Part shown: positions 17,124-30,427 of the stretch, in pieces
Layout of the letters: each line of letters starts with the position of its first letter
Position numbering within the stretch: position 1 is the stretch's first letter
Notes under the pieces: generated by a model
What the model was told of the DNA's origin: nothing
Seen by the model: only the letters and a program-made list of their open reading frames with translations
Database searches by the model: none
From: Promethearchaeia archaeon
GTDB taxonomy: Archaea > Asgardarchaeota > Lokiarchaeia > Sigyniarchaeales > SOKP01
DNA: 32,000 nt
Reading direction: 5' to 3'
NCBI GenBank assembly: GCA_046497275.1
Contig: JAWOFX010000035.1
Span: 1-32,000, forward strand
Position numbers and translations under genes: made by a program

Positions 17124-18176
17124 TTATCTACTACAAACAGAATACCCACAATGATTACAATTACCTGTATCATCAATATCCAATTTTACTATATTAAATT
17201 CAGATCTTTTAATCACTGTATCTCCACAGTTCGGACAACTTGTATCGCTTCCTTTGCCACCTAAAATATTTCCCAGATACACATAATCTAATCCTGCTGC
17301 TTTCCCCATATAAAATGCTTTTTCTAAAATATCTAAATTAGTATTGGATGTGAAACCATAATCCTTAGACTTAAAATACGGAAATGCTCTGGTAAAATGT
17401 AATGGTATTGATTTTCCTAAGTCATCTTTTATACGATCTATTACTCCTTGAACTATTTTCTCGTCTGTATTGAAATCTTCTATTAAGAGATTAGTAATTT
17501 CAACATGAACATCATTATTGACAAAAAGTTTAGCATTTCTCCAAACTTTATCCACATCAGCCCCACAATATTTTTGAACCATTTGTGAATCGCCTTTAAT
17601 ATCAATATTAATTGCATCTAAACCATTCTCTATTAAATCTTTTACAACCATTTCAGTCATATAACCATTAGAGACATAAGTGGTATATAACCCTTCTTTT
17701 TTTGCTAATTGAAATGCATCTAAAGAATATTCAAACAAGAGAGTTGGTTCATTAAATGAAATAGAGATCCCTTCACAATTATTTTGTATAGCTTTTTCTA
17801 TAAATTCTTCTGGAGATAAATAATCTTTTAAATTTTTTACTTTCTCTCTGATTGGAGCTTCAGGGTGAGAAAGATGATAATTCTGACACCAAAAACAACC
17901 AAAATTGCAACCGTAGGTTCCCACTGTATAGGCTTTCGTGCCAGGATGAAAATTATAAAAGGGTTTTTTTTCAATAGGATTTATAGACTCTGCTGGGATC
18001 TTTCCATAAACAATTGTATAAATTTCACCATCTAAATTCATACGAGTCCCACAAAATCCCGTATTATCTTTTTTAATCTTACATTTTCTTTCGCAAGTGA
18101 GACATTGTGAAAGATTTTCATTGATTTTGAATTGAAATTTGCTTTTTCTTAAGAATTTCTCATGAATAGCCGACAT
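17124..18176 (-). CDS. amrS: AmmeMemoRadiSam system radical SAM enzyme
   Basis: CxxCxxxC...GFCGTR N-terminus, PIEKKPFYNFHPG, GCNFGCFWCQN, SFNEPT, NIDIK, C-terminal CPNCG...CNHCG. Confidence 0.9.
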   Translation of the reverse strand: MSAIHEKFLRKSKFQFKINENLSQCLTCERKCKIKKDNTGFCGTRMNLDGEIYTIVYGKIPAESINPIEKKPFYNFHPGTKAYTVGTYGCNFGCFWCQNYHLSHPEAPIREKVKNLKDYLSPEEFIEKAIQNNCEGISISFNEPTLLFEYSLDAFQLAKKEGLYTTYVSNGYMTEMVVKDLIENGLDAINIDIKGDSQMVQKYCGADVDKVWRNAKLFVNNDVHVEITNLLIEDFNTDEKIVQGVIDRIKDDLGKSIPLHFTRAFPYFKSKDYGFTSNTNLDILEKAFYMGKAAGLDYVYLGNILGGKGSDTSCPNCGDTVIKRSEFNIVKLDIDDTGNCNHCGYSVCSR

Positions 18177-18306: not shown

Positions 18307-20535
18307 ATGATCAACTGGATTATTTTAATTTTTTATTTCTTGGATATCAATAACATAATCACTATTGATAGCATATTTTTCGTAAATTTTCCAATATTAC
18401 TAATATCACGTTTAATTCTCATTAGTACATTTATTTTAAGCCATAGAGAAGAATATCCAAATGATCTAACAAAAGATCAAATGTCTTTCGTTAAAAAAAA
18501 TAAAAAATATCGAATTCTAAAAGAAATAATTATCCTCCTCTTTGGTATAATTTATTCCCCAATAACGATTTTTTTGACTCTATACACACTTATGAGAGTA
18601 GGGCTTATTCTTGAGAATAGAGGAACATTAAAAAGAACACATAAACTTGAGATATGTGGGAAATTTATAATTTTTTTCTTTCCAACCGGAGCATTATTAT
18701 GGTTCAGTATCGTAAATGATTTATTTTCGCTAATAGCTACTTCTTTTAGTTTAATACTCTTCCTTTATAAGTATCGAAGAAACTATTTATCTAAGTTAGT
18801 AGAATATGTTGAAAAGCATAGAAATAGACGCATAAATAAAATGGGGAGAACAGGTACAATAATTAAGGTTATAGGGCTTTTTTTTCTGATATCATTTCCC
18901 TTTTCTTTCATTTTAATCACTGGAATATATTCTCCTCCTGAAAAAATTACTAGAATGGTTAAAATGGAAGATGGTGTGGAATTAGCCACAGATGTTTATC
19001 TAGCTCCCGGATCTTTTGGCTCCCCTAGACCAGTAATTTTAGTAAGAACGCCATACGGAAAAAATGCGATGGGTGAATATTATGGACTGTTATATAATAC
19101 CCAAAAATATCACATGGTTGTTCAAGATTGTAGAGGAACTTTTGATTCAGGTGGTAAAGATGACTTTATTATATTTATGGAGGCATTTAGCGATGGAGTG
19201 GATACGATTGAATGGATAATGAATCAGAGTTGGTGCAATGGAAAAATAGCAAGTGTTGGTCCATCTGCACTTTGCATCAATCAATATTTTTATGCCGGAA
19301 TGAATCCGAATGGACTTGTTGGACAATCTCTTATGATTGGAACACCTGATTTATATAAAACAAGTATTTTTCGTGGAGGAGCTTTTCAGCAAAATTTAGT
19401 GCTTGAATGGATTAAAGGTGTCGCACCAGAAAATTATGAAGAACAACTTCAAACAATCATAAGTCACCCTAAAAAAGACTATTTATATAACTCAACTTCA
19501 CTTTTTATGGAAACGGGTCCAAATTTCGGAAATGTTAGCGTTCCTGCGATTCATATTGGTGGATGGTATGATACCTTCCAGCAAGGCACTCTAGATGGGT
19601 ATATGGGATATGATGATGAATCGCAAGCTCAAGGAAAGCAACTTTTAATAATGACACCCTCCACTCACGGAATGCCCAGAGAAGGTAAGATCGGAAACTT
19701 GACTTTTCCCACAACAAACTATAATGGATTTAATTTATATTTAGATTGGGAACAGAAATTATTAGATCATGTCTTATTTGGAAAACCTTTTGATTGGTCG
19801 GGGAATAGAGTTGCTTATTATTTGATGGGAGATGTTGATGATAAAACTATAACTGCTAATGAATATAAATTTGCTGAAGATTGGCCAGTTCCTTACGAGA
19901 ATAATACTTGGTATTTAAATTCGACAAGTGGGATTGGATTTTCTAATGGAACTATACCTTCGATTAATTTAAATCATTCATATCTTTTCGATCCTCGACA
20001 CCCCGTTCCAACTGTTGGAGGAAATAACTTATTATTAGATTCGGGACCTTATGATCAAAGAAAAGTGGAAACAAGAGATGATGTGCTTGTTTTTACTTCA
20101 TCTTCTCTTGAAGAACCTTATACGATCGTAGGAAGAATGTGGGCAGAGCTTTTTGTGAAATCCAACTGCACAAATACTGATTTTACAGTAAAATTATGTG
20201 ATGTATATCCTGATGGGAGGTCAATTTTAATTACTGATGGAATTATTAATGCTGCGAGGAGAGATGGATTCAATAAAACAGCACCAGACTTGAATGCAAG
20301 TGGAGTTCAGAAAGTGATTATTGACTTATGGTCTACAGCCTACCAATTCAACACAGGACATAAAATCCGTGTTTCGATATCGAGTTCAAATTATCCTCGT
20401 TTTGGAATAAATCCAAATACAGGAGAAGAACCAAAATTATATTCATATCAATATCTTCAAAGAAATATCGCAAATAATACTATTTTCGCTGGAAATCCAT
20501 GTAATTCCTCTATAATTTTACCAAAGTTGCTATAA
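18307..20535 (+). CDS. CocE/NonD family hydrolase with ~210-aa multi-TM N-terminal region
   Basis: DGVELATDVY, VRTPY, QDCRG, DGVDTIEW, GPSALC, GGWYD, STHG, FDPRHPVP, RDDVLVFTS, GHKIRVSISSSNYPRF. Confidence 0.9.
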   Translation: MINWIILIFYFLDINNIITIDSIFFVNFPILLISRLILISTFILSHREEYPNDLTKDQMSFVKKNKKYRILKEIIILLFGIIYSPITIFLTLYTLMRVGLILENRGTLKRTHKLEICGKFIIFFFPTGALLWFSIVNDLFSLIATSFSLILFLYKYRRNYLSKLVEYVEKHRNRRINKMGRTGTIIKVIGLFFLISFPFSFILITGIYSPPEKITRMVKMEDGVELATDVYLAPGSFGSPRPVILVRTPYGKNAMGEYYGLLYNTQKYHMVVQDCRGTFDSGGKDDFIIFMEAFSDGVDTIEWIMNQSWCNGKIASVGPSALCINQYFYAGMNPNGLVGQSLMIGTPDLYKTSIFRGGAFQQNLVLEWIKGVAPENYEEQLQTIISHPKKDYLYNSTSLFMETGPNFGNVSVPAIHIGGWYDTFQQGTLDGYMGYDDESQAQGKQLLIMTPSTHGMPREGKIGNLTFPTTNYNGFNLYLDWEQKLLDHVLFGKPFDWSGNRVAYYLMGDVDDKTITANEYKFAEDWPVPYENNTWYLNSTSGIGFSNGTIPSINLNHSYLFDPRHPVPTVGGNNLLLDSGPYDQRKVETRDDVLVFTSSSLEEPYTIVGRMWAELFVKSNCTNTDFTVKLCDVYPDGRSILITDGIINAARRDGFNKTAPDLNASGVQKVIIDLWSTAYQFNTGHKIRVSISSSNYPRFGINPNTGEEPKLYSYQYLQRNIANNTIFAGNPCNSSIILPKLL

Positions 20536-20547
20536 ATATTAAAAATC

Positions 20548-20555
20548 TTTTTTTT
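20548..20555 (+). terminator. Putative oligo-T terminator of the CocE gene
   Basis: T8 run 13 bp after the stop codon, in a convergent intergenic region. Confidence 0.4.
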
Positions 20556-20648
20556 ATAATTATATTGAAAAAACTTCTCAACATTAGTTCTTCTTAAACC
20601 GTTTTATCCTCACAAAAATAAGAAATAAAAAGAAAATTAAGTTAAATA

Positions 20649-21188
20649 TTAAGGAATGATAATTAAACCAAAAAAATCCAATAAAATAAAAATCAAGGAA
20701 ATAAATTCGAGAAGAATCCACAGATTTCTCTTCAAACTTCTTAAACTTTTAAGACTTTTTCCAGAATAATTGATGTTATTATAAATTAAAATCAGTATCC
20801 ATGCGGTTATAAGAAATGTAATTGGTAATGCAAGTGTTAAATAATTTTTTCCAACGAAATCTATTAAATATTTATATCCTAAGAAGGTGAAAGCATTTAT
20901 AACAAATGTAAATCCTAATCCAAATGAATATTCCGCAAAAGAAACAAATTTATTAACTTTTTCTATATCAGCATCGCCTTGTTTTATTTGAAATTTCGCT
21001 GATGAATTAGCAGAAACTGAATTAACGAATAATATAAAAGCAATCATTAATAGAAATGTTGCGATAACAATACCATTACTCGGGACATTTTGCCAAATTA
21101 AAGCCAAAATAGTCAAGACAATTCCTATCATAGTTGTTGAAAGTACAATCCAATCTTTTACATTAATTTTATCTACTTTTGAGCTCAT
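20649..21188 (-). CDS. Hypothetical integral membrane protein (~5 TM)
   Basis: 179-aa ATG ORF with about five hydrophobic segments; upstream AAAAAC-TTAAATA promoter-like motif. Confidence 0.75.
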   Translation of the reverse strand: MSSKVDKINVKDWIVLSTTMIGIVLTILALIWQNVPSNGIVIATFLLMIAFILFVNSVSANSSAKFQIKQGDADIEKVNKFVSFAEYSFGLGFTFVINAFTFLGYKYLIDFVGKNYLTLALPITFLITAWILILIYNNINYSGKSLKSLRSLKRNLWILLEFISLIFILLDFFGLIIIP

Positions 21189-21389: not shown

Positions 21390-23555
21390 CTAAATAAAAT
21401 ATTCTTTTACGATAATTCTTGAGAATTGAATCATTTTTTCTCCAAGATCCGTTTTTTCTCTTGATTTTGCTAAGATCCAATACTTTCCATAAAGTTTATC
21501 TAAGTACTCCCCCTCAGCATCTATCGAAAAAGCAAATACATTAAATTTCTTTCTAACATCTTGAATTTCATCAATAGCATCATTCAATCCATAACCCGTA
21601 CCTGCAGGTTGTCCATCAGATATAACTATAATTATTTCATTACCTTCAAGTTTAGAGGCTTCATATTGAATAGATATACCATCTAAATTTGAATTGATAT
21701 ATCCATGACATCCAAATAAATCTAATTTTTTAATTTGTATTTGTTCATTGAAATCTTTTACTAGAATATTTCTTGCATCCCGTTCTCCAGTAAATAATAC
21801 GATTCTTAAGAAAGCAATATCCTTTAAAGCTTCACATAATAATATCATAGCTATTTTCGCAGCTTCTAATTTTATACCCCTCATACTCCCGCTGATATCC
21901 ACCATGAGCAATATTTTCAGAATTTTGCGGTTTAACTTCCTTGTAAAACATTTTTTGTAATTATAATTACTGGTTATTGCCTTAATGAATCCTTTATTCA
22001 ATCGCCCAATATTTTGAAAAGCATCATATTCTTTTTCATTATTTAAAGTGCTAAAGATGTTCTTTATTTTATTTACCATGTTATTATGCACTGAGAGAAT
22101 CTCTTTATAAGTTAAATCAATAGGATTCATTTTTTCATCCTCTATATTTGTATCTATAACTTTACACGATAATTCTTTTTTATTCTTTTCATCTTTAAGA
22201 GTTAAGGTTTCTAATCTTATGAATCTTTCTTTCATTTCCTCATCTGAAGTCTCAATTAAACCTAAGATATCATCAATTATCGCTTTTTTGGCATTAGATC
22301 GATCCAAGCTATTCTCTTCATTTTCAATAGGAATATAAGTTATTTTTTCGGAATCTTTTTCTAAATCCTTCAATTCAACCAAATCCTCCATATGATCATC
22401 TGATTCTTTAGATTCGAAACTATCAAGAATTTGACTTTTTTTGCTAAAATTATCGATCATTTTCTCAAAGTCTTCAGTTTCAGTAGGATTCTCTTGATTT
22501 TCTTCTTCCTTAATTTCTATTTTATTTAATAATTCCTTCAAATCTTCATGCTTAAGATCGTTTTTCTCAAGTTCTTTAATAGTTTCTTCACTTGATTTAT
22601 CAATATTCGATTTTTCCCTCTTTTCTTCTCGAAATGAGAAATTCTCGACCTGTGATAGAAATTCTTCATTATCTTGAATGTTTATAGGACCTATTCTTCC
22701 TAAATCTTCATCTTCTAAATAAAAAGGATCTGCTAATTTGTTTGGTTCATCAAGAGATGATATTTCGAATTCTTCTTTCTCTCTTTGATTACCATCAATG
22801 GATTCCTCATCTAAAATAACATAATCAGATCTATTTCTACAATTTCGATTATAATTATTACTAATAGAGTTATGTGCACCAGATCTTCCTTTTGGTTTCA
22901 TTATAACCTTTTTTTTTCGAAAATACTTTTTTAATATTTTACAGAATTGATCTATTACGATTATCGAAGTATTGGGAGTTAAGGATTTCAATAAAAGCTT
23001 CTTGATGGTTTTAATTGTTTCCCAATCTTCATTTTTCATTTCTCTAGTTGAAAAAACAGGTTTCATTTGGAATTCATGATAATCTTCCATAAAAAGATTG
23101 ATATAAAGTAAAATATCTCCTGATAATTGCATTCTTTTTATAAGCTGAGGTAATATTTCTAGAGTATATTTTCTTAAATAATAATAAAAACCAGGAAATC
23201 TCTGTTTGTTTATCATATCGATTCTTACATCTTCTACAATATTTACAATCCTTTTTACTAAATTCCCGGGTAAATCATATTTTTTTGATAAAACTCTCAC
23301 TAAATTCAAAATAGAGAGTTCAAAGGAACCATATCCTATATGTCCACTCTCATGAGCAATAAATCCTTGAGAATAAGTGATATTTTTTTTAAATTTTATA
23401 GGTATATATATAAAAGGACCATCAGTATAGATTAAAGATGTGTTTAAATATTGGATTTTTATATCTCTTTTTCCACTTATCCTTTTTGCTAGACTTGTCA
23501 ACGCAGACAAATCAGTAAAAAAGTCTGGCTCATAAAGCTTATATATTCCATCCAT
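21390..23555 (-). CDS. vWA/MIDAS protein with N-terminal HExxH metallopeptidase-like domain and long acidic linker (CobT/NorD-like architecture)
   Basis: TDG..IYIP...GFIAHESGH...NIVEDVRI...FPG; D/E-rich aa ~245-480; MVDISGSM, NLDG, ISDGQP. Confidence 0.88.
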   Translation of the reverse strand: MDGIYKLYEPDFFTDLSALTSLAKRISGKRDIKIQYLNTSLIYTDGPFIYIPIKFKKNITYSQGFIAHESGHIGYGSFELSILNLVRVLSKKYDLPGNLVKRIVNIVEDVRIDMINKQRFPGFYYYLRKYTLEILPQLIKRMQLSGDILLYINLFMEDYHEFQMKPVFSTREMKNEDWETIKTIKKLLLKSLTPNTSIIVIDQFCKILKKYFRKKKVIMKPKGRSGAHNSISNNYNRNCRNRSDYVILDEESIDGNQREKEEFEISSLDEPNKLADPFYLEDEDLGRIGPINIQDNEEFLSQVENFSFREEKREKSNIDKSSEETIKELEKNDLKHEDLKELLNKIEIKEEENQENPTETEDFEKMIDNFSKKSQILDSFESKESDDHMEDLVELKDLEKDSEKITYIPIENEENSLDRSNAKKAIIDDILGLIETSDEEMKERFIRLETLTLKDEKNKKELSCKVIDTNIEDEKMNPIDLTYKEILSVHNNMVNKIKNIFSTLNNEKEYDAFQNIGRLNKGFIKAITSNYNYKKCFTRKLNRKILKILLMVDISGSMRGIKLEAAKIAMILLCEALKDIAFLRIVLFTGERDARNILVKDFNEQIQIKKLDLFGCHGYINSNLDGISIQYEASKLEGNEIIIVISDGQPAGTGYGLNDAIDEIQDVRKKFNVFAFSIDAEGEYLDKLYGKYWILAKSREKTDLGEKMIQFSRIIVKEYFI

Positions 23556-23613
23556 TTCTAATCTTAATTTTAATAATTTAAAATTTAAAAAAATGAAAAT
23601 ATTTAAGTAAAAT

Positions 23614-24855
23614 TTAATAGCTTAATTGGCATTTTCCACTCAAGAATTCCCCTAATTCCTTATTTTTATTACTATAAACCCACTTAATATAAGTTAAAGT
23701 AAGGCCTCCTGCATATATATGAGTCTTCCCCGTCTTTCTTTTGAAATCATCATGCCAACCAAATTTTTCCGTTAATCTAAAAAACCTCTGAAGTGCTTTT
23801 TTATGATTTTTCCATAACCAATAAATAGATTTCCATAAAATTCCTCCTTTTTGCTCAAAGATGGATCTTCTTTTATGTATATGCAAATAATCATCTACTG
23901 CTTTCTTCATATCCTCAATTAAATATTTCTCTGTTTTATTATTACTATGATTTTGTGCTTGATGTTGCTTTTTTTTTCCATCTCCTCCAGATAAAATATC
24001 TTTAAGTCTCTCTTCGAACATTTTTCCGTCTAAAATCATAGCAATTGATTTTCTCTCTTCCTGATTTTCACCAAGTTTATTTATGATTATATTTTCAATA
24101 TTTTGTTTTAGATATTCTGGTGGCATTTTAGAAATAATATAACAAAAATTTACTATTAATCTTGTTGAAAAAATTTTCGTTAATGTGAAATCTTCAATGG
24201 CTTGTTTTCTTATTTGTTGAGCGGCATCAACAACTAACTCTGCTAGTTGTTGTTTACAATTCGTTATTTTTGTAGTTATAAAAACTTCTTTCTGTCTTTT
24301 AGGATAATTTAACTCTGGACAAACTACGAAACGATCTTCAAAGGCAGATTGTAATTGATTAACTCCAATAACTCCTTTATTCATAGTCCCAATAATTATT
24401 AATTTACTTTCCTGATTTAATTCGAATTTTTCGAATCCTTTGGAAATTAAATTAATATGGTTCTCAGAAAGAAGAGAATTAAGTGAAATCTGCTCACTAT
24501 CTCGTATAGCGTTTATTTCGTTAATAATAATAAATGAAATACCCTTCTCATTAGCTATTTTTATAGCTTGCGTTAACGGGCCATAATTAAATTTCGTACC
24601 ACCTTGAATTAGTTCCCAATATCCCTCAAGATCTCGACGATCTAAATCCGGAGAACCATCAATAATAAAATATTGAGAATCAAAACGATTTGCTAAAGAA
24701 ATAGCAAGTAAGGTCTTTCCTGTACCAGGAGGGCCATAAAGTAATATTCCTGCGCAGCTTCCTTTCTCAAGAGATTTTATTAAATCAAAAAGATAATCGA
24801 ATTCATTTTTTTGTTGAATATAATTTAAACTACTTTTTTCTTTTGATGCTAGCAT
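23614..24855 (-). CDS. MoxR-type (AAA_5; CbbQ/NirQ/CobS-like) AAA+ ATPase with extra C-terminal domain
   Basis: GPPGTGKT, DLEG, GPL, Walker B variant IIINEIN, sensor 1 TMN, Arg finger AFEDRF, sensor 2 STR. Confidence 0.9.
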   Translation of the reverse strand: MLASKEKSSLNYIQQKNEFDYLFDLIKSLEKGSCAGILLYGPPGTGKTLLAISLANRFDSQYFIIDGSPDLDRRDLEGYWELIQGGTKFNYGPLTQAIKIANEKGISFIIINEINAIRDSEQISLNSLLSENHINLISKGFEKFELNQESKLIIIGTMNKGVIGVNQLQSAFEDRFVVCPELNYPKRQKEVFITTKITNCKQQLAELVVDAAQQIRKQAIEDFTLTKIFSTRLIVNFCYIISKMPPEYLKQNIENIIINKLGENQEERKSIAMILDGKMFEERLKDILSGGDGKKKQHQAQNHSNNKTEKYLIEDMKKAVDDYLHIHKRRSIFEQKGGILWKSIYWLWKNHKKALQRFFRLTEKFGWHDDFKRKTGKTHIYAGGLTLTYIKWVYSNKNKELGEFLSGKCQLSY

Positions 24856-25052: not shown

Positions 25053-26414
25053 TTATCTTGTGGTAAAAATCCTCATCATAAGAAGAAAAAATTTGCGATA
25101 AAATTTTCTAACAATGGAGAGATTAAATAAATGTCTTATAATTTTAAGTAGTGTATAATTTTTCGGTTTAAATGTGCTTTTTTCCAAATCATAACTAACC
25201 TCTTCAATAAAAAAATTTGATTTGAATAAAGATATAAACCACTCATATGAAATTATCGCAATTATATCCCATGCACGTTTAACATGATCTTGTGGATAAT
25301 TAAGTTTTTCTCCCATAGCCATTCTAACTATTTCAATAATATGATATATATCTATTTTACTTCCAAACAGTTCTCTTGTAGCCCATAATAAATAGATACA
25401 TCCCCCACAATAAGAAACTAAAGCCTCTGCCCCAGTCCGTTCCGCTTCATCAAACTTTTTGATTCCTTCATGGATAATATCGAATGGAATAGAAATGTTT
25501 CTTACCCATGAAGCACCCGCTCCAAATCCACAACATAAGGAATCTGCTCGATTGTGTTTCATTTCTATTATTTTACAACCGCATTTTTCAACAATCTTAC
25601 GTGGGGGTTCCCAATATTTACCGTTCGAAACTTTCGAATAACAATTATCATGTATGGTTACCGTCATATCTAATTTATTTTTGATATCTAAAACTCCTGA
25701 ATTAATCTTATCTAGCATCCACTCTTGAAGACTCTCAAATTCGTGAGAATGTTCTACCCCCATCTCTTCTGGATGAGCCTTTTCATAAATATATTCAACT
25801 GCATCTAAGCTAGCTACTATTTCTTTACTCTCCCATTTATCAAAATCCCTTTTAGTTTTTTGTGCAATCTTTTGAACAACATCCAAAAACCCTCCTTGAT
25901 ATAAATAAGCTCCACCTTCCCAGTGATCAATTAAATCCACAGGAATAAAATAATCTAAAATTTTACTCCCTCCTATGATAAAGGGAAAAAGATGAGTATA
26001 ATTTCCTATCAATAGAGGTATGTCTTCTGGTTGAGGGGTATTAGTCATCCAATTCAAAATCCATTTTATTTCTTTTCGGGATAAAAAGATATTTAGCAAT
26101 TGCCAAATATTTGGCTCCCTTGTTGGACAAACAAATGTATAAAGAGCTGGAGCACCTCGAATATAATATAGGTCATTCCATCGTTCCAATATTAGCTGAT
26201 AAGGATTAGCATCTTCTGGGCAATAGATATTACAGGAAAAACATGTATTGCATTTATAAAGAACCAAACTAGGTTCTTTTCCTTCAATTAATCGAATTAT
26301 TTCGGTTTTTGCTTCATCAATTGGCAGTTTAAGAACAGGACATTTATTAAAGCATATTCCACATCTAGTACATGCCTGTTCGTCAAATTTTGATTTTCTT
26401 TTTAACTCGGTCAT
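25053..26414 (-). CDS. (Fe-S)-binding protein, 2x[4Fe-4S] + CCG domains (HdrD/GlcF/GlpC-like); first CCG domain degenerate
   Basis: CTRCGICFNKCP, CNTCFSCNIYCP, HDNC, CCGFGAG, YCGGC. Confidence 0.88.
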   Translation of the reverse strand: MTELKRKSKFDEQACTRCGICFNKCPVLKLPIDEAKTEIIRLIEGKEPSLVLYKCNTCFSCNIYCPEDANPYQLILERWNDLYYIRGAPALYTFVCPTREPNIWQLLNIFLSRKEIKWILNWMTNTPQPEDIPLLIGNYTHLFPFIIGGSKILDYFIPVDLIDHWEGGAYLYQGGFLDVVQKIAQKTKRDFDKWESKEIVASLDAVEYIYEKAHPEEMGVEHSHEFESLQEWMLDKINSGVLDIKNKLDMTVTIHDNCYSKVSNGKYWEPPRKIVEKCGCKIIEMKHNRADSLCCGFGAGASWVRNISIPFDIIHEGIKKFDEAERTGAEALVSYCGGCIYLLWATRELFGSKIDIYHIIEIVRMAMGEKLNYPQDHVKRAWDIIAIISYEWFISLFKSNFFIEEVSYDLEKSTFKPKNYTLLKIIRHLFNLSIVRKFYRKFFLLMMRIFTTR

Positions 26415-26489
26415 CTCTTAAATCCACTTATTTACTAACTCTAATAATTTTATGATTTTAGTGTATATTAAAATTGAATTTTTTATAAT

Positions 26490-27764
26490 TTACCATGCTT
26501 TTTTATATTCAGGAGGTTTTTTGGGGATTTCCTCGATTTTAAATCTTTTTCTGGAGAGAAGCATAGGCATTTGATTTTTCATAATTCCCCAAAAAAAGCC
26601 ACTAGCTCTTTCTTTCTTTCTTTCTTCCGTTATAGCTGGTTCTTCCCCGATTGCTTTTTGAATCAATTCTATAATATGATAAATTTTCATATGCTTCTTG
26701 AAATATAACTTCTGAGCAGTTGTTAGAGTTGCTAAACAACCCGCACAATAAACACATATAGCATCTGCTTCCGTTTTTCTAAAATCCTTAAAATTTCTGA
26801 AAGAAGAACGCATAAGATTAAATGGATTATATGAGGAATCAACAGAAAATCCACCACCAATCCCACAACACCTCATATCTTCACGGCACGCATCAATTTC
26901 AATTATTTCACATCCTAAAGAATTTAATATTTTTCTTGGTAAATCCATGTATTCATCCCCAAACATTTTGGCATAACAAGATTCTTGAATTGTTATTATC
27001 ATATCTAATTCTTTTTTTATTACAATCTCATTATTCTCTAGTTTCTCCCATAAATACTGAATATAAGACTTAATCGAATCAAATGTATATTTTAAACCAT
27101 AATGGGGGAGAATATTTTTAAAAACATTTGTTCCGGCAGTACACAAGACTAGAAGATTTTTAGGCTTCAAAATATTAAACCATCTATCTAATCTTTGTGT
27201 CACCTCTCTCAATTTATCTTCGAATCCTGTTCGAAATAACGTCTCTCCACAACAATATTCCAATCTTCCGCGTATATCTAAATCCTTAAATAGTGAAGTT
27301 TGGGTAAGTTCAGCAAAAGTTATCACATTACATCCTGGATAAGTTAAAGTATCACTTTTCAATGGTTTTAAACTAGCCCATTCAGACACAAGATTCTTTG
27401 TATCCTCTGGGAGATGTTCCATTACATAACTACGAAAATTTGGATATTGAGGATAATGTGTAATATAATACTTAGCTCTCTTTTTTAAGCCTTCTTCCTT
27501 GTACTTCTCATTCCATCTTTTTAGAATTAAACTAGCAGGATGAGCATTTTGGGGACAATAAAAATTACACGTGAAACAGCTTTGACAATTCTCCAAAATC
27601 TCTGAGGATTCTCCGTTTATTAATTTTTTCATTTCCTCTACAGATTCTTCCTTCGAGATATCCATGATCGGACAGTTTAGAAGGCATTCACCACATAAAT
27701 TACATCTTTCTCTATTAAAAGGATCAAAAAAACTAATATCGATCGGTTCTATCTTTTCTTTCAT
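26490..27764 (-). CDS. (Fe-S)-binding protein, 2x[4Fe-4S] + CCG domains (HdrD/GlcF/GlpC-like)
   Basis: CNLCGECLLNCP, CQSCFTCNFYCP, YPGC, CCGE, LCTAG, QESC, CCGIGGG, YCAGC. Confidence 0.88.
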   Translation of the reverse strand: MKEKIEPIDISFFDPFNRERCNLCGECLLNCPIMDISKEESVEEMKKLINGESSEILENCQSCFTCNFYCPQNAHPASLILKRWNEKYKEEGLKKRAKYYITHYPQYPNFRSYVMEHLPEDTKNLVSEWASLKPLKSDTLTYPGCNVITFAELTQTSLFKDLDIRGRLEYCCGETLFRTGFEDKLREVTQRLDRWFNILKPKNLLVLCTAGTNVFKNILPHYGLKYTFDSIKSYIQYLWEKLENNEIVIKKELDMIITIQESCYAKMFGDEYMDLPRKILNSLGCEIIEIDACREDMRCCGIGGGFSVDSSYNPFNLMRSSFRNFKDFRKTEADAICVYCAGCLATLTTAQKLYFKKHMKIYHIIELIQKAIGEEPAITEERKKERASGFFWGIMKNQMPMLLSRKRFKIEEIPKKPPEYKKAW

Positions 27765-28768: not shown

Positions 28769-29587
28769 ATGAGCAAAGGATTTAGATTATTACGGTTGGA
28801 ATATTTATTTACTGTGTTAATTCCACTACTCATCGCTATTTACTTAAATAATTACTCGATTATAGATAATATTGCAATTATAGGAGCTTTTGCTTTTTGG
28901 GCAATAACAGGGAATACATTAAATGATTTGAAAGATATGGAAAACCCAGATGATAAAGAAACGAGGGAAAGAATTATGGGTTATTCAAAAAAAGAAATTG
29001 CTGTTTTGGCGATATCTTCTTTCATTTTGGGGATTGCATTATTTTATAATCCGATTTTAGATAATCCTATAATCTCATTATATGTCTTTTTAACAGCTAT
29101 TATGGTTATATTATACTGTATTGCTTTGAAAAAAATATTAGGTATAAATTGGATCTTATTGGGGATTTCTCATATTTGGTTTCCATACTTTATAATAAAA
29201 TTAAACGCAAATATAACAGAATTTTTTCCTACTTTAGAAATATATGAGTGGTTCTTTTTAGTATCTGCGTCTCTTGTTGCTTTATCAGGTAATCTTATTC
29301 ATGAAGTCATCGATAATGATGCCATTACGCGTTTAAAACCAAGATATCAACAATTTATCATTTGGTTTGTATCTATATGTGCTATTGGGTTCAGTATTAT
29401 ATCAATTCTCCTTTTTACTGAAGAACTCTTTCTTCTCACCCCTGTGTTAATAATTCCCTTGGGAGTTTTGTATATGGCTCGATCAAAACATAATCTACCC
29501 CATAATGCAACTTCTATCAAGGATATAGGGATTATAATTGGAAATCTATTATTAGCATTTATAACAATTCTTCTTATAACTTTTTAA
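28769..29587 (+). CDS. UbiA prenyltransferase superfamily protein (divergent motifs)
   Basis: LLRL N-terminus, GNTLNDLKD, YCIALKK, GNLIHEVID; ~8-9 TM segments. Confidence 0.72.
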   Translation: MSKGFRLLRLEYLFTVLIPLLIAIYLNNYSIIDNIAIIGAFAFWAITGNTLNDLKDMENPDDKETRERIMGYSKKEIAVLAISSFILGIALFYNPILDNPIISLYVFLTAIMVILYCIALKKILGINWILLGISHIWFPYFIIKLNANITEFFPTLEIYEWFFLVSASLVALSGNLIHEVIDNDAITRLKPRYQQFIIWFVSICAIGFSIISILLFTEELFLLTPVLIIPLGVLYMARSKHNLPHNATSIKDIGIIIGNLLLAFITILLITF

Positions 29588-29620
29588 AAATAAGATTTAG
29601 AAAAGGGCAATAATCTGAAT

Positions 29621-30427
29621 TTATACATATAACATTTTCATAATAATTAGTGCTATAAAATATATCATAAGAAAATTCCCTATAAGGATTCCCACATCTT
29701 TAACGCCTTGCGTTGATTTTGTAGGGCGTCTAAATGTAAATATTGTTCCCAAAGGAACAAATAAAAATGGCAAGAAATAATAATCCAGAATCAGAAAGAA
29801 TGCCCACATTGCTAAAATTATTGTCAAGATGGAAAAAATCCAGATAACTATTTGACATTGCTTTAAACTTAAATGCTTTCTAATAGCATCATGGTCAATT
29901 ACTTCATGGACGAGTTGTCCTAAAACAGCAAATGTAAAAAATGCTGATAGAAATATCAATTCCCCAAATCCTATAGAAAATAAACCAGCATCGATTTTGA
30001 TTATAAAGTAGGGTAAAATAACGTGAGATAAAGCTAAGAAAATTTGATTTATAATCGGAATGGGTTTAATCCAAATGCAATATGTAATCACCATTACAAT
30101 TATTATTCCAAGAAAAATTCCATTGATATAATTTTCTATACACGTTCTCAAAAGCAGAGTGATTCCAAAAACAAAACTCCCTAACCCAATAGTAAATATT
30201 TCGCGTGGATGGTATCCTTCTATTCTTTTTAGGGTTTCTATTTCTTCTGGATTTTTCATATCAGTCACATCATTCCAAGTATTACCAGTAATCGCTAACA
30301 ATCCAAATCCGAATATAATATCAATATGCTCAAGTGGATTTAAATCATTTAAGTAAATTGCGATGAGCAATGGAACTATTACACTGAATAAATAATCTAA
30401 TCGCAATAAGTTAATTCTATTTGCCAT
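29621..30427 (-). CDS. UbiA prenyltransferase superfamily protein, convergent paralogue of 28769-29587
   Basis: LLRL, GNTWNDVTD, YCIWIKP, GQLVHEVID; 34 of the first 60 aa identical to its neighbour (manual ungapped count). Confidence 0.72.
   Translation of the reverse strand: MANRINLLRLDYLFSVIVPLLIAIYLNDLNPLEHIDIIFGFGLLAITGNTWNDVTDMKNPEEIETLKRIEGYHPREIFTIGLGSFVFGITLLLRTCIENYINGIFLGIIIVMVITYCIWIKPIPIINQIFLALSHVILPYFIIKIDAGLFSIGFGELIFLSAFFTFAVLGQLVHEVIDHDAIRKHLSLKQCQIVIWIFSILTIILAMWAFFLILDYYFLPFLFVPLGTIFTFRRPTKSTQGVKDVGILIGNFLMIYFIALIIMKMLYV

Follow-up and report, generated by a model that had tools for sequence, protein, structure and literature searches.

Pairs of a MoxR-type AAA+ ATPase and a vWA-domain partner are known maturation factors, among them NorQ/NorD, CbbQ/CbbO and CobS/CobT. 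In the first two, which belong to the MoxR CGN subfamily, the vWA partner engages the pore of the ATPase ring and offers its MIDAS to the client. To our knowledge, tailed viruses, plasmids and scattered cellular lineages often harbor orphan CobS/CobT-like pairs, and no function has been shown for them outside cobalt chelation. CobS and CobT serve cobalt insertion in vitamin B12 synthesis; within the aerobic cobaltochelatase CobNST, one is the motor and the other the adaptor, and their structures are available from Brucella melitensis and Rhodobacter capsulatus (bioRxiv 10.64898/2026.07.21.739949, 10.64898/2026.10.09.757910). In CobST, the N-domain of CobT (CobT_N) has an M48C-like fold and docks on the small domain of the ATPase (bioRxiv 10.64898/2026.07.21.739949); no metal site has been reported for it, and the word “zinc” is absent from both of these papers. 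A two-gene cobST cluster is also known in many tailed bacterial and archaeal viruses, where it has been proposed to hijack the CobN of the host (Liu et al. 2021, PMC8651126).

How does a pair of this kind in an Asgard archaeon compare with these systems? The window analyzed here comprises positions 1 to 32,000 of contig JAWOFX010000035.1 from Promethearchaeia archaeon GCA_046497275.1. (In two runs of salt-lake metatranscriptomes, the contigs hold about one-fifth of the sampled words, a figure that is not a measure of the pair’s transcription.) At positions 21390-24855 are two open, co-directional ORFs on the minus strand: an ATPase gene (P0001, CobS/NorQ-like AAA+, 413 aa; 23614..24855) and a partner gene (P0002, CobT-like adaptor, 721 aa; 21390..23555), separated by an A+T-rich spacer of 58 bp (23556..23613); the original prediction had seen two adjacent, co-directional genes at this distance. 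The corresponding gap in related loci is 8-60 bp, an arrangement that fits co-transcription. Because both proteins have many conserved homologues, a chance pair of ORFs is excluded: this is a real, conserved AAA+/vWA two-gene module, and its unusual features are conserved as well. The original prediction had gone further, proposing an undescribed system. That part did not survive, as both genes are of the CobS/CobT-like class already known as a two-gene cluster in tailed viruses (PMC8651126). The pair is best read as an orphan, virus-type CobS/CobT-like motor and adaptor, and not as an undescribed kind.

The ATPase matches AAA_5 at 2e-23, and the only other Pfam match is a marginal one to CbbQ_C in the lid (22.5 bits, cut-off 20.6). 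The closest solved folds are those of the CGN subfamily; the best Foldseek matches of its model include NorQ (9qh6/9qh9, E 1e-14, TM by target 0.78-0.81) and CbbQ (6l1q, E 1e-13). Its best PHROG is phrog_249, the phage CobS family (“porphyrin biosynthesis”; 3.3e-28). Among the 25 NCBIfam matches listed there was no CobS model; GvpN came first, with 41 bits where the cut-off is 267. Since the ATPase reaches no CobS-specific model, the designation “CobS-like” rests mainly on its partner and on the PHROG match.

The protein features given here and below all lie on the minus strand. Walker A (GPPGTGKT, aa 41-48; 24712..24735) is classical, with G41, P43, G44, G46, K47 and T48 invariant in alignment A3. 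The ATPase also keeps sensor 1 (N159), the arginine finger (R175) and sensor 2 (R232). Walker B (FIIINE, aa 108-113; 24517..24534) is atypical, as the original prediction had noticed: it carries Asn in place of the usual Asp, and N112 and E113 are invariant in 16 Lokiarchaeal homologues. This substitution could weaken or alter ATP hydrolysis. Among viral relatives, two (L090 and L091) share the NE form, while a third (L089) has DE.

The extra C-terminal domain that had been suspected is likewise borne out. Residues 305-413 (23617..23943) contain two Trp/Lys-rich repeats and are modelled confidently (pLDDT about 80-90) as helices with two small hairpins. The domain is basic (pI 9.8, net charge +12) and holds five Trp; W341, K342, W346, W348, Y389, I390, W392 and Y394 are invariant. 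It has no match in Pfam and no usable match in the Atlas, and it recurs in the viral relatives L089 and L091. With this added basic domain of 110 residues, the Asn-Glu Walker B and the classical GPPGTGKT Walker A, the Lokiarchaeal ATPase differs from CobS, in which the domain has no counterpart; NorQ and CbbQ, at about 260-270 residues, do not have it either.

The partner is, judged by its sequence, a member of the CobT family. A wider-family profile, built from alignment A4 of distant relatives with P0002 left out, found Brucella CobT as its best solved match (9uka_G, 7.3e-38) and another CobT further down (21vt_A, 7.6e-24). Second-best was NorD (8.9e-28), with a match confined to the vWA part; neither NorD nor CbbO matched in its N-region. 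Identity to CobS and CobT is too low for detection from single sequences, and searches of solved structures with the partner’s single sequence and with a profile of its N-domain gave no match.

That N-domain (aa 1-215; 22911..23555) was assigned as CobT_N-type, with a probable M48C/minigluzincin-like fold, by hhalign and fold searches. It aligns with the N-domains of PF06213-positive (Pfam CobT) proteins at 98.9% probability (E 2e-17), and CobT-type proteins lead the Atlas fold search (TM 0.49-0.59). Its model, which is moderately confident (pLDDT 72, below 50 around the HExxH motif), consists of a helix, a three-stranded sheet and further helices, the published CobT_N topology. Foldseek against the PDB returned nothing at E <= 0.001, and a VIA-wide search stayed below Z = 5 throughout. 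For residues 9-74, where the motif region is modelled at pLDDT below 50, the VIA matches were weak (Z 3.6-4.2) and fell on HtpX, abylysin and selecase.

Beyond the N-domain, an acidic, length-variable linker (aa 251-440; 22236..22805) has 61 Asp/Glu in 190 residues (net charge -36, pI 4.2) and is poorly conserved and rich in indels in alignment A1. A conserved block follows (aa 441-545; 21921..22235), in which R444, I471, M476, F501, Q514, G517, L519, N520, C536, F537 and K540 are the conserved residues. From its position, this pre-vWA segment is likely the equivalent of the CobT “shaft” (bioRxiv 10.64898/2026.07.21.739949), the N-terminal extension of the vWA domain, and would have the same function. 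The vWA domain itself (aa 546-721; 21393..21920) gave weak matches to VWA_3, CobT_C and VWA_2. Its MIDAS (D553-x-S555-x-S557 ... N623 ... D647) is invariant among Lokiarchaeal homologues and distant relatives, and it has the DxSxS..N..D pattern of CobT (D422/S424/S426/N518/D546 in Brucella, D410/S412/S414/N506/D534 in Rhodobacter; bioRxiv 10.64898/2026.07.21.739949, 10.64898/2026.10.09.757910). The combination of HExxH motif, acidic linker and MIDAS in one protein of 721 residues stands as the original prediction had described it.

Another possible relative was midasin (Rea1), in which AAA_5 modules are likewise followed by a D/E-rich linker and then a MIDAS domain. It heads the PDB matches of the ATPase’s single sequence, yet no single stretch of that match passes alone. 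Midasin is absent from the best 50 structural matches of the ATPase, and its tail (4.7e-13) ranks below CobT and NorD for the partner-family profile. Because CobT and NorD are far better matches and the pair was found in a single Lokiarchaeial family only, the other 232 Asgard genomes searched being without it, there is nothing to suggest that it is a specific forerunner of midasin. Restricted to that family and standing no nearer to midasin than do CobT and NorD, the pair has no direct bearing on the origin of eukaryotes.

Structure prediction of the ATPase-partner complex gave a score of 0.86, the best of three controls reaching 0.01. Among 80 solved complexes, 58 attained this mark, against 2 of 110 mismatched pairs; such counts apply only roughly here because our own alignments were used as input. 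The prediction runs share at least 85% of their contacts, with the partner at a pLDDT of at least 87. On the ATPase, the predicted interface comprises residues 214-224, 250-258 and 265-281, within the helices of the lid, or small AAA+ subdomain (aa 214-281; 24013..24216), and includes the invariant K269, M273, I274, D276, G277 and K278. On the partner, it comprises residues 3-30 and 120-125; residues 63 and 67 also lie in it. The lid residues and partner residues 3-30 and 120-125 are the invariant ones and correspond to the surfaces in contact in the crystal of the CobS small domain with CobT_N. The predicted docking of the N-domain on the lid is a point of likeness to CobNST. The C-terminal domain of the ATPase lies outside of the predicted interface.

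From these data, we consider it probable that the pair is an orphan motor and adaptor of the CobS/CobT-like, tailed-virus type, residing as a free-standing chromosomal module in some genomes of a single Lokiarchaeial family. Homology suggests a hexameric clade-7 AAA+ ring for the ATPase, and the N-domain of the partner, with its probable zincin (M48C-like) fold, would clamp the lid. The vWA domain would hang on the long acidic linker and reach into the pore of the ring with its conserved N-terminal extension; on the far side, the MIDAS face may grip an acidic residue of the client, which ATP hydrolysis would then remodel. The role as a client-remodelling motor is thus proposed by analogy with the described pairs.

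The CobST model leaves one feature of the partner unexplained. A zincin-type motif, HESGH (aa 68-72; 23340..23354), is invariant in 21 Lokiarchaeal homologues, in 50 distant relatives and in all 44 rows of the tree set. Among the 21 homologues, H68, E69, H72, E79, N105, E108, D109 and R111 are all invariant, and the last four of these fall in NIVEDVR (aa 105-111; 23223..23243), a candidate “glutamate helix” that may supply the third metal ligand. Such an invariant HExxH/ED site speaks for a role of the N-domain beyond docking. Here the Lokiarchaeal partner departs from CobT: the family profile could not align HExxH to Brucella CobT, in whose alignment the counterpart of NIVEDVR is DAVEQAR.

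Could the pair then be a protease? In such a case, it would be a split, two-chain, ATP-dependent metalloprotease, FtsH-like in function, in which a live zincin is fed by the ring and the MIDAS or else cuts its own linker. H68, E69, H72, N105, E108, D109 and R111 are invariant in Lokiarchaeal, viral and distant relatives alike, which amounts to a complete gluzincin-like signature, and every weak fold match of the part with the motif falls on an M48 or minigluzincin peptidase. However, CobT uses the same fold for docking and for contact with CobN, with no metal site reported, and the two residues beside the motif, 63 and 67, lie in the predicted interface with the ATPase. The motif region is also poorly modelled. 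We therefore judge a metalloprotease to be rather unlikely. The metallopeptidase domain of the original prediction is retained in part: the HExxH is invariant, but the domain is the M48C-like N-domain of CobT, whose shown role in CobST is docking (bioRxiv 10.64898/2026.07.21.739949). Proteolysis and an association with nucleic acids, both raised in that prediction, are conjectures. A broader form of this idea, that the pair and its relatives in tailed archaeal viruses together represent a novel kind of split AAA+ protease (an unfoldase ring of MoxR/CobS type, a tethered live zincin and a substrate-selecting MIDAS receptor), seems to us unlikely. If it were true, Lokiarchaea and their viruses would use the machine to cut or dismantle a specific protein complex of the host or of the virus, and the basic, Trp-rich domain would target it, nucleic acid and the acidic linker of the partner being two possible destinations.

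Returning to the motor and adaptor, what might be its client? As had been stated for the window, Pfam searches of its other ORFs revealed no cobN, nor, cbb or gvp gene; the pair therefore is not linked there to norB/C, to a form I/II RuBisCO operon or to gvp genes, in contrast to NorQ/NorD, CbbQ/CbbO and GvpN. The genome, which is 98.9% complete, contains no candidate of the CobN/ChlH family (PF02514), whereas five control genomes were matched, and no gene of the COX1/NorB family was found in it. A genome-wide search for gvp genes was uninformative, as it matched no control genome. In lacking CobN, the Lokiarchaeal genome differs from the CobNST setting, and the proposed hijack of host CobN cannot apply to this copy. 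Of the outcome that the original prediction had set against itself, one half came true: the genes are homologues of a characterized pair. The other half did not, since cobN is lacking from the genome and the atypical features are conserved.

The neighboring genes suggested themselves as clients, since related loci have the conserved, operon-like order UbiA-CCG-pair-rSAM. The pair might then be a chaperone or chelatase motor that inserts a cofactor into an enzyme of the cell; the adjacent CCG iron-sulfur proteins, which are HdrD-like, would be examples, as would RuBisCO or an unrecognized chelatase. Such a role would suit a MoxR/vWA pair, a class known for maturation factors; most loci have one or two CCG genes upstream in the same orientation, and the genome has two RuBisCO-family genes. 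Nevertheless, the two RuBisCO genes are unlinked to the pair, and RuBisCO is present in 5 of 5 pair-less genomes. CCG genes are kept without the pair in 4 of the 5 pair-less genomes tested, and the pair occurs without nearby CCG genes at six loci. At the same locus in a genome of the sister genus (G141), the order is UbiA-CCG-[350 bp]-rSAM, with the pair precisely missing, and in three genomes the pair sits elsewhere, between purE and pgk. Finally, neither CobN nor NorB was found, and the viral copies have none of these neighbors. These observations rule out the neighbors and make a cofactor-insertion role exceedingly improbable. The client is neither CobN nor a neighboring gene, and none is recognizable nearby, in keeping with the unknown client of the original prediction.

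The neighborhood comparison called for at the outset placed the pair in 18-19 of 68 genomes of a single Lokiarchaeial family, with the nearest relatives of both genes on tailed-virus contigs of IMG/VR that also carry genes for tape-measure protein, PCNA, methyltransferase and thymidylate synthase. Within genera its occurrence is patchy (13/28 and 4/22 genomes). The tree of the ATPase agrees with that of the partner, and in both the nearest outgroups are viral; by these trees, the two move as a unit. The two genes are adjacent in most loci examined, including viral L090, L091 and L094; in viral L089, they are about 5 kb apart. As in the viral cobST clusters, the pair is a free-standing AAA+/vWA module without cobN, its partner being of a type often annotated as a peptidase; the added C-terminal domain is found in the viral relatives too, and so, in some of them, is the NE Walker B. 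Unlike those clusters, the Lokiarchaeal copy is chromosomal, has ordinary cellular flanks and is diverged about as much as they are: identity is 60% for the ATPase, 61-68% for CCG and 54-59% for rSAM. This similarity to the chromosomal neighbors fits old vertical inheritance with losses better than a recent acquisition.

The patchiness within genera, the presence or absence at a fixed locus and the closest kin on tailed-virus contigs could also be taken to mean that a virus-derived conflict module, for anti-virus defence or superinfection exclusion, was retained by some lineages. Neither protein has a convincing PADLOC match, however; those of the ATPase are at the P-loop level (E 4e-5 and weaker, over 24-40 residues), and the partner has none. 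The flanking genes in both contexts are ordinary metabolic genes, not defence genes, and the divergence of the pair is again better explained by old vertical inheritance with losses. We accordingly regard a conflict module as quite improbable.

Read as an orphan motor and adaptor, the Lokiarchaeial clade sharpens the orphan-pair problem in three ways. A genome without CobN excludes the hijack of host CobN for this copy; the protease-like site does not vary among the chromosomal copies or among the relatives examined from viruses and other metagenomic sources; and a conserved domain has been added to the ATPase.

The viral side of this family was explored further in databases. No close relative of the pair was found among isolated phage genomes (INPHARED), where the ATPase had no relative and the partner only two matches at the level of the vWA domain. 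Comparison of pieces of the viral contigs with the Lokiarchaeal genome studied here gave no CRISPR or short nucleotide matches. Patterns drawn from Lokiarchaeal sequences only gave no match in IMG/VR; when viral rows were added to the alignment, three close contigs emerged. The module that they have in common marks a few IMG/VR contigs as possible Lokiarchaeial viruses.

The two genes lie on the minus strand, where an ATPase ORF of 413 aa (23614..24855) is followed after 58 bp by a partner ORF of 721 aa (21390..23555). The adjacent, co-directional AAA_5 and vWA genes of the original prediction were confirmed. In Pfam, the ATPase matches AAA_5 (2e-23) and, marginally, the CbbQ_C lid. An alignment of 16 homologues displays a classical Walker A motif (GPPGTGKT), a Walker B motif reading IIINE, in which Asn112-Glu113 is invariant, and a very strongly conserved insert (aa 116–143). 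Asp-Glu is the usual Walker B pair of AAA+ proteins. Sensor 1 (N159), the arginine finger (R175) and sensor 2 (R232) are all intact. The predicted structure contains an additional, well-modelled domain (aa 305–413; pLDDT about 80–90) made up of two Trp/Lys-rich repeats; it is basic (pI 9.8, net charge +12). Hence, the atypical Walker B and the extra C-terminal domain, both called from sequence alone, were borne out. Among solved folds, NorQ was the best match (E 1e-14; TM 0.78–0.81 by target) and CbbQ was also found; the top viral-family match was phrog_249, the phage CobS family (3.3e-28).

The HExxH motif, acidic linker and MIDAS originally ascribed to the partner also withstood scrutiny. 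HESGH (aa 68–72), NIVEDVR (aa 105–111) and the MIDAS residues of the vWA domain (D553, S555, S557, N623 and D647) are invariant among homologues; the linker (aa 251–440) varies in length, and 61 of its 190 residues are Asp or Glu. A conserved block (aa 441–545) precedes the vWA domain. The N-domain had no Pfam match of its own, and an exhaustive profile search with it returned 230 relatives, the distant ones being 550–720 residues long. When 50 of these were scanned, VWA was detected in 27, CobT_C in 17 and the CobT N-domain family PF06213 in nine; all 50 kept the HExxH, NxxEDxR and MIDAS residues. Profile–profile comparison matched the Lokiarchaeial N-domain to those of the PF06213-positive relatives (98.9% probability, E 2e-17). 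One such relative, P0218 (CobT, 48.7 bits; CobT_C, 107 bits), has HETLH at the position of HESGH.

As modelled by AlphaFold (pLDDT 72), the N-domain has a single helix, a sheet of three strands and a bundle of helices; its top matches among predicted structures were CobT-type proteins from Uroviricota, Bacillota and Pseudomonadota (TM 0.49–0.59). CobT_N of Brucella combines one helix with a three-stranded sheet and eight helices, has been likened to the peptidase M48 subfamily C domain, and binds the CobS small subdomain (bioRxiv 10.64898/2026.07.21.739949). Searched against solved structures, a profile of the wider partner family found Brucella CobT (9uka_G) best (7.3e-38), then NorD, over the vWA part only; the midasin tail scored 4.7e-13. 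The MIDAS pattern of CobT, DxSxS..N..D, is the same in the partner. From the profile, fold, MIDAS and phrog_249/NorQ/CbbQ matches, we conclude that the pair is a CobS/CobT-like motor and adaptor, and we identify the “metallopeptidase” domain as the CobT N-domain. Of the original interpretation, the conserved AAA+/vWA two-gene module stands; the claim of an undescribed system does not, as the pair falls in the CobS/CobT-like class, to which viral cobST belongs (PMC8651126). It represents a known kind, in a form specific to this lineage. A literature search found no paper on an Asgard copy.

Does the adaptor dock onto its motor? A complex prediction with the ATPase lid and C-terminal domain (aa 180–413) and the partner N-domain, each with its own alignment, scored 0.86; the highest-scoring of three controls gave 0.01. 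In calibration, 58 of 80 solved complexes attained such a score, as did two of 110 mismatched pairs; these rates apply only roughly to our custom alignments. At least 85% of the contacts agreed between runs, with a partner pLDDT of at least 87. The predicted interface joins lid residues 214–224, 250–258 and 265–281 to partner residues 3–30, 63, 67 and 120–125; these are the invariant positions on both sides, and they correspond to the interface helices of the CobS small domain and CobT_N. The model supports binding between the two proteins. The extra C-terminal domain is absent from the predicted interface and would therefore be free for another role.

The pair is best read as an orphan CobST-type remodeller. 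The ATPase would form a hexameric ring, with the partner N-domain clamped on its lid; the acidic linker would tether the vWA domain, the conserved segment at aa 441–545 would plug it into the pore, and the MIDAS face would hold a client. The steps beyond docking we infer from CobST and NorQD. In CobT, a “shaft” N-terminal to the vWA domain inserts into the CobS pore, with CobN on the MIDAS side (bioRxiv 10.64898/2026.07.21.739949). Three conserved features lie outside the CobST model: the invariant zincin-like site, the Asp-to-Asn change in Walker B and the basic C-terminal domain. In the wider-family profile, the zincin-like part is not alignable to Brucella CobT, and neither CobT structural preprint mentions a metal at the corresponding site. 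On account of this site, a protease function is a less likely alternative.

What might such a remodeller act upon? The window belongs to contig C9 of a 3.85-Mb Lokiarchaeial genome that is 98.9% complete (GC of the window, about 29%), and homologues of the pair are labeled Promethearchaeota or Lokiarchaeota. Consistent with the original prediction, none of the remaining ORFs in the window was recognised by Pfam as a cobN, nor, cbb or gvp gene. The genome also had no CobN/ChlH family member, while control genomes matched, no further CobT or CobT_C gene and no NorB-type gene. Its two RuBisCO-family genes are unlinked to the pair and occur in all five pair-less relatives tested. It had been allowed at the outset that the genes might be orthologues of a known pair, with cobN in the genome and unconserved peculiarities; the CobS/CobT-like kinship is real, but cobN was not found and the features are conserved. 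Elsewhere in this genome (C64:2871-4891; L002 230-2250, minus strand), a second, ordinary MoxR-type pair encodes a 301-aa AAA_5/AAA_3 ATPase and then a 307-aa vWA protein; this ATPase is only 33% identical to the window's over the core.

In most related loci, UbiA is followed by one or two HdrD-like CCG genes, then by the ATPase and partner genes, radical SAM, alpha/beta hydrolases and MFS. Inconsistent co-occurrence of the pair and the CCG genes contradicts the idea that the pair serves these adjacent proteins as a chaperone. In the sister-genus genome G141, UbiA and CCG are followed at this locus, after 350 bp, by radical SAM, and the pair is cleanly missing; three pair-carrying loci lack CCG genes; and in three genomes purE and pgk flank the pair. 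The conserved order is therefore inherited and not a functional unit. In the window, the HdrD-like genes (25053-27764, minus strand) are tandem Fer4 + CCG paralogues of about 30% mutual identity, conserved across the family and retained in genomes without the pair. The UbiA-family paralogues (28769-30427) are convergent and both fall under the Pfam cut-off; one UbiA gene is the constant left-hand neighbor across the family. The radical SAM gene (17124-18176, minus strand) exceeds the TIGR04337 cut-off (AmmeMemoRadiSam system enzyme, 254 bits) and has a C-terminal zinc-ribbon-like match. Between it and the CobT-like gene lie a plus-strand Peptidase_S15/PepX_C gene (742 aa) and a 179-aa ORF without a family match (18307-21188); both are confined to the window and L006, its closest relative, and therefore represent a lineage-specific insertion into the conserved order.

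Among 301 sampled Asgard genomes (E <= 1e-30), the ATPase was present in 18 of 68 genomes of the window's family, its own excluded (genus g1, 1/1; g2, 4/22; g5, 13/28), and in 0 of 232 genomes of 29 other families. The partner occurred in the same genomes except G255 (short contig), and complete genomes without the pair exist in the same genera. Identities across related loci were about 60% for the ATPase, 42–48% for the partner, 61–68% for CCG and 54–59% for radical SAM. Because the pair is about as diverged as its chromosomal neighbors, these sequence data fit a long-standing presence of the pair in the family, with recurrent later loss and a single relocation. In G297 (C42:317-1516), a single TAA stop breaks an ATPase orthologue, and a different contig of this genome holds a second, partial copy; either gene decay or misassembly could account for this. 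Another Lokiarchaeial family harbors a different CobS/CobT-like pair, with 426-aa AAA_5 and 723-aa HEGGH/CobT_C genes in divergent orientation (L074, G094:C18, 1096-4610). That CobT-like protein is 29% identical to the partner and clusters among other metagenomic proteins, suggesting a separate acquisition.

The nearest relatives outside the Lokiarchaeial clade reside on contigs of 44–99 kb (GC 31–36%), three of them IMG/VR viral genomes, carrying tape-measure, PCNA, DNA methyltransferase, thymidylate synthase, dUTPase and many small unknown genes. Lokiarchaeial sequences group into a single clade in both trees (support: ATPase, 88/94; partner, 100), and their nearest outgroups are the viral sequences; therefore, the two genes travelled together. 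No close relative was found in isolated phage genomes. A two-gene cobST cluster is carried by many tailed viruses that infect bacteria and archaea, and viral cobT is frequently annotated as a peptidase (Liu et al., PMC8651126). This viral kinship and the patchy distribution are the sole points in favor of a defence role, against which stand the lack of a convincing PADLOC match and of defence genes among the neighbors.

The ATPases of the viral contigs are 38–54% identical to the window's; two have the C-terminal Trp-rich domain, and two have the Asn-Glu Walker B, with the usual Asp-Glu in one. The ATPase at 8916-9998 of L090 (IMGVR_UViG_3300027901_000002) lacks the Trp-rich domain and instead bears about 75 additional residues at its N-terminus, zinc-ribbon-like and containing CxxC pairs; the motor's accessory domain is therefore exchangeable. 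Finally, a 258-aa ORF without family assignment (C79:9102-9878, minus strand; L172) lies between a histone-deacetylase-family gene and a CoiA-like nuclease gene in the window's genome. It is 46–54% identical to a 139-aa gene beside the cobST-like genes of viral contigs L089 and L091 and is, by sequence identity, a second gene common to this genome and those contigs.
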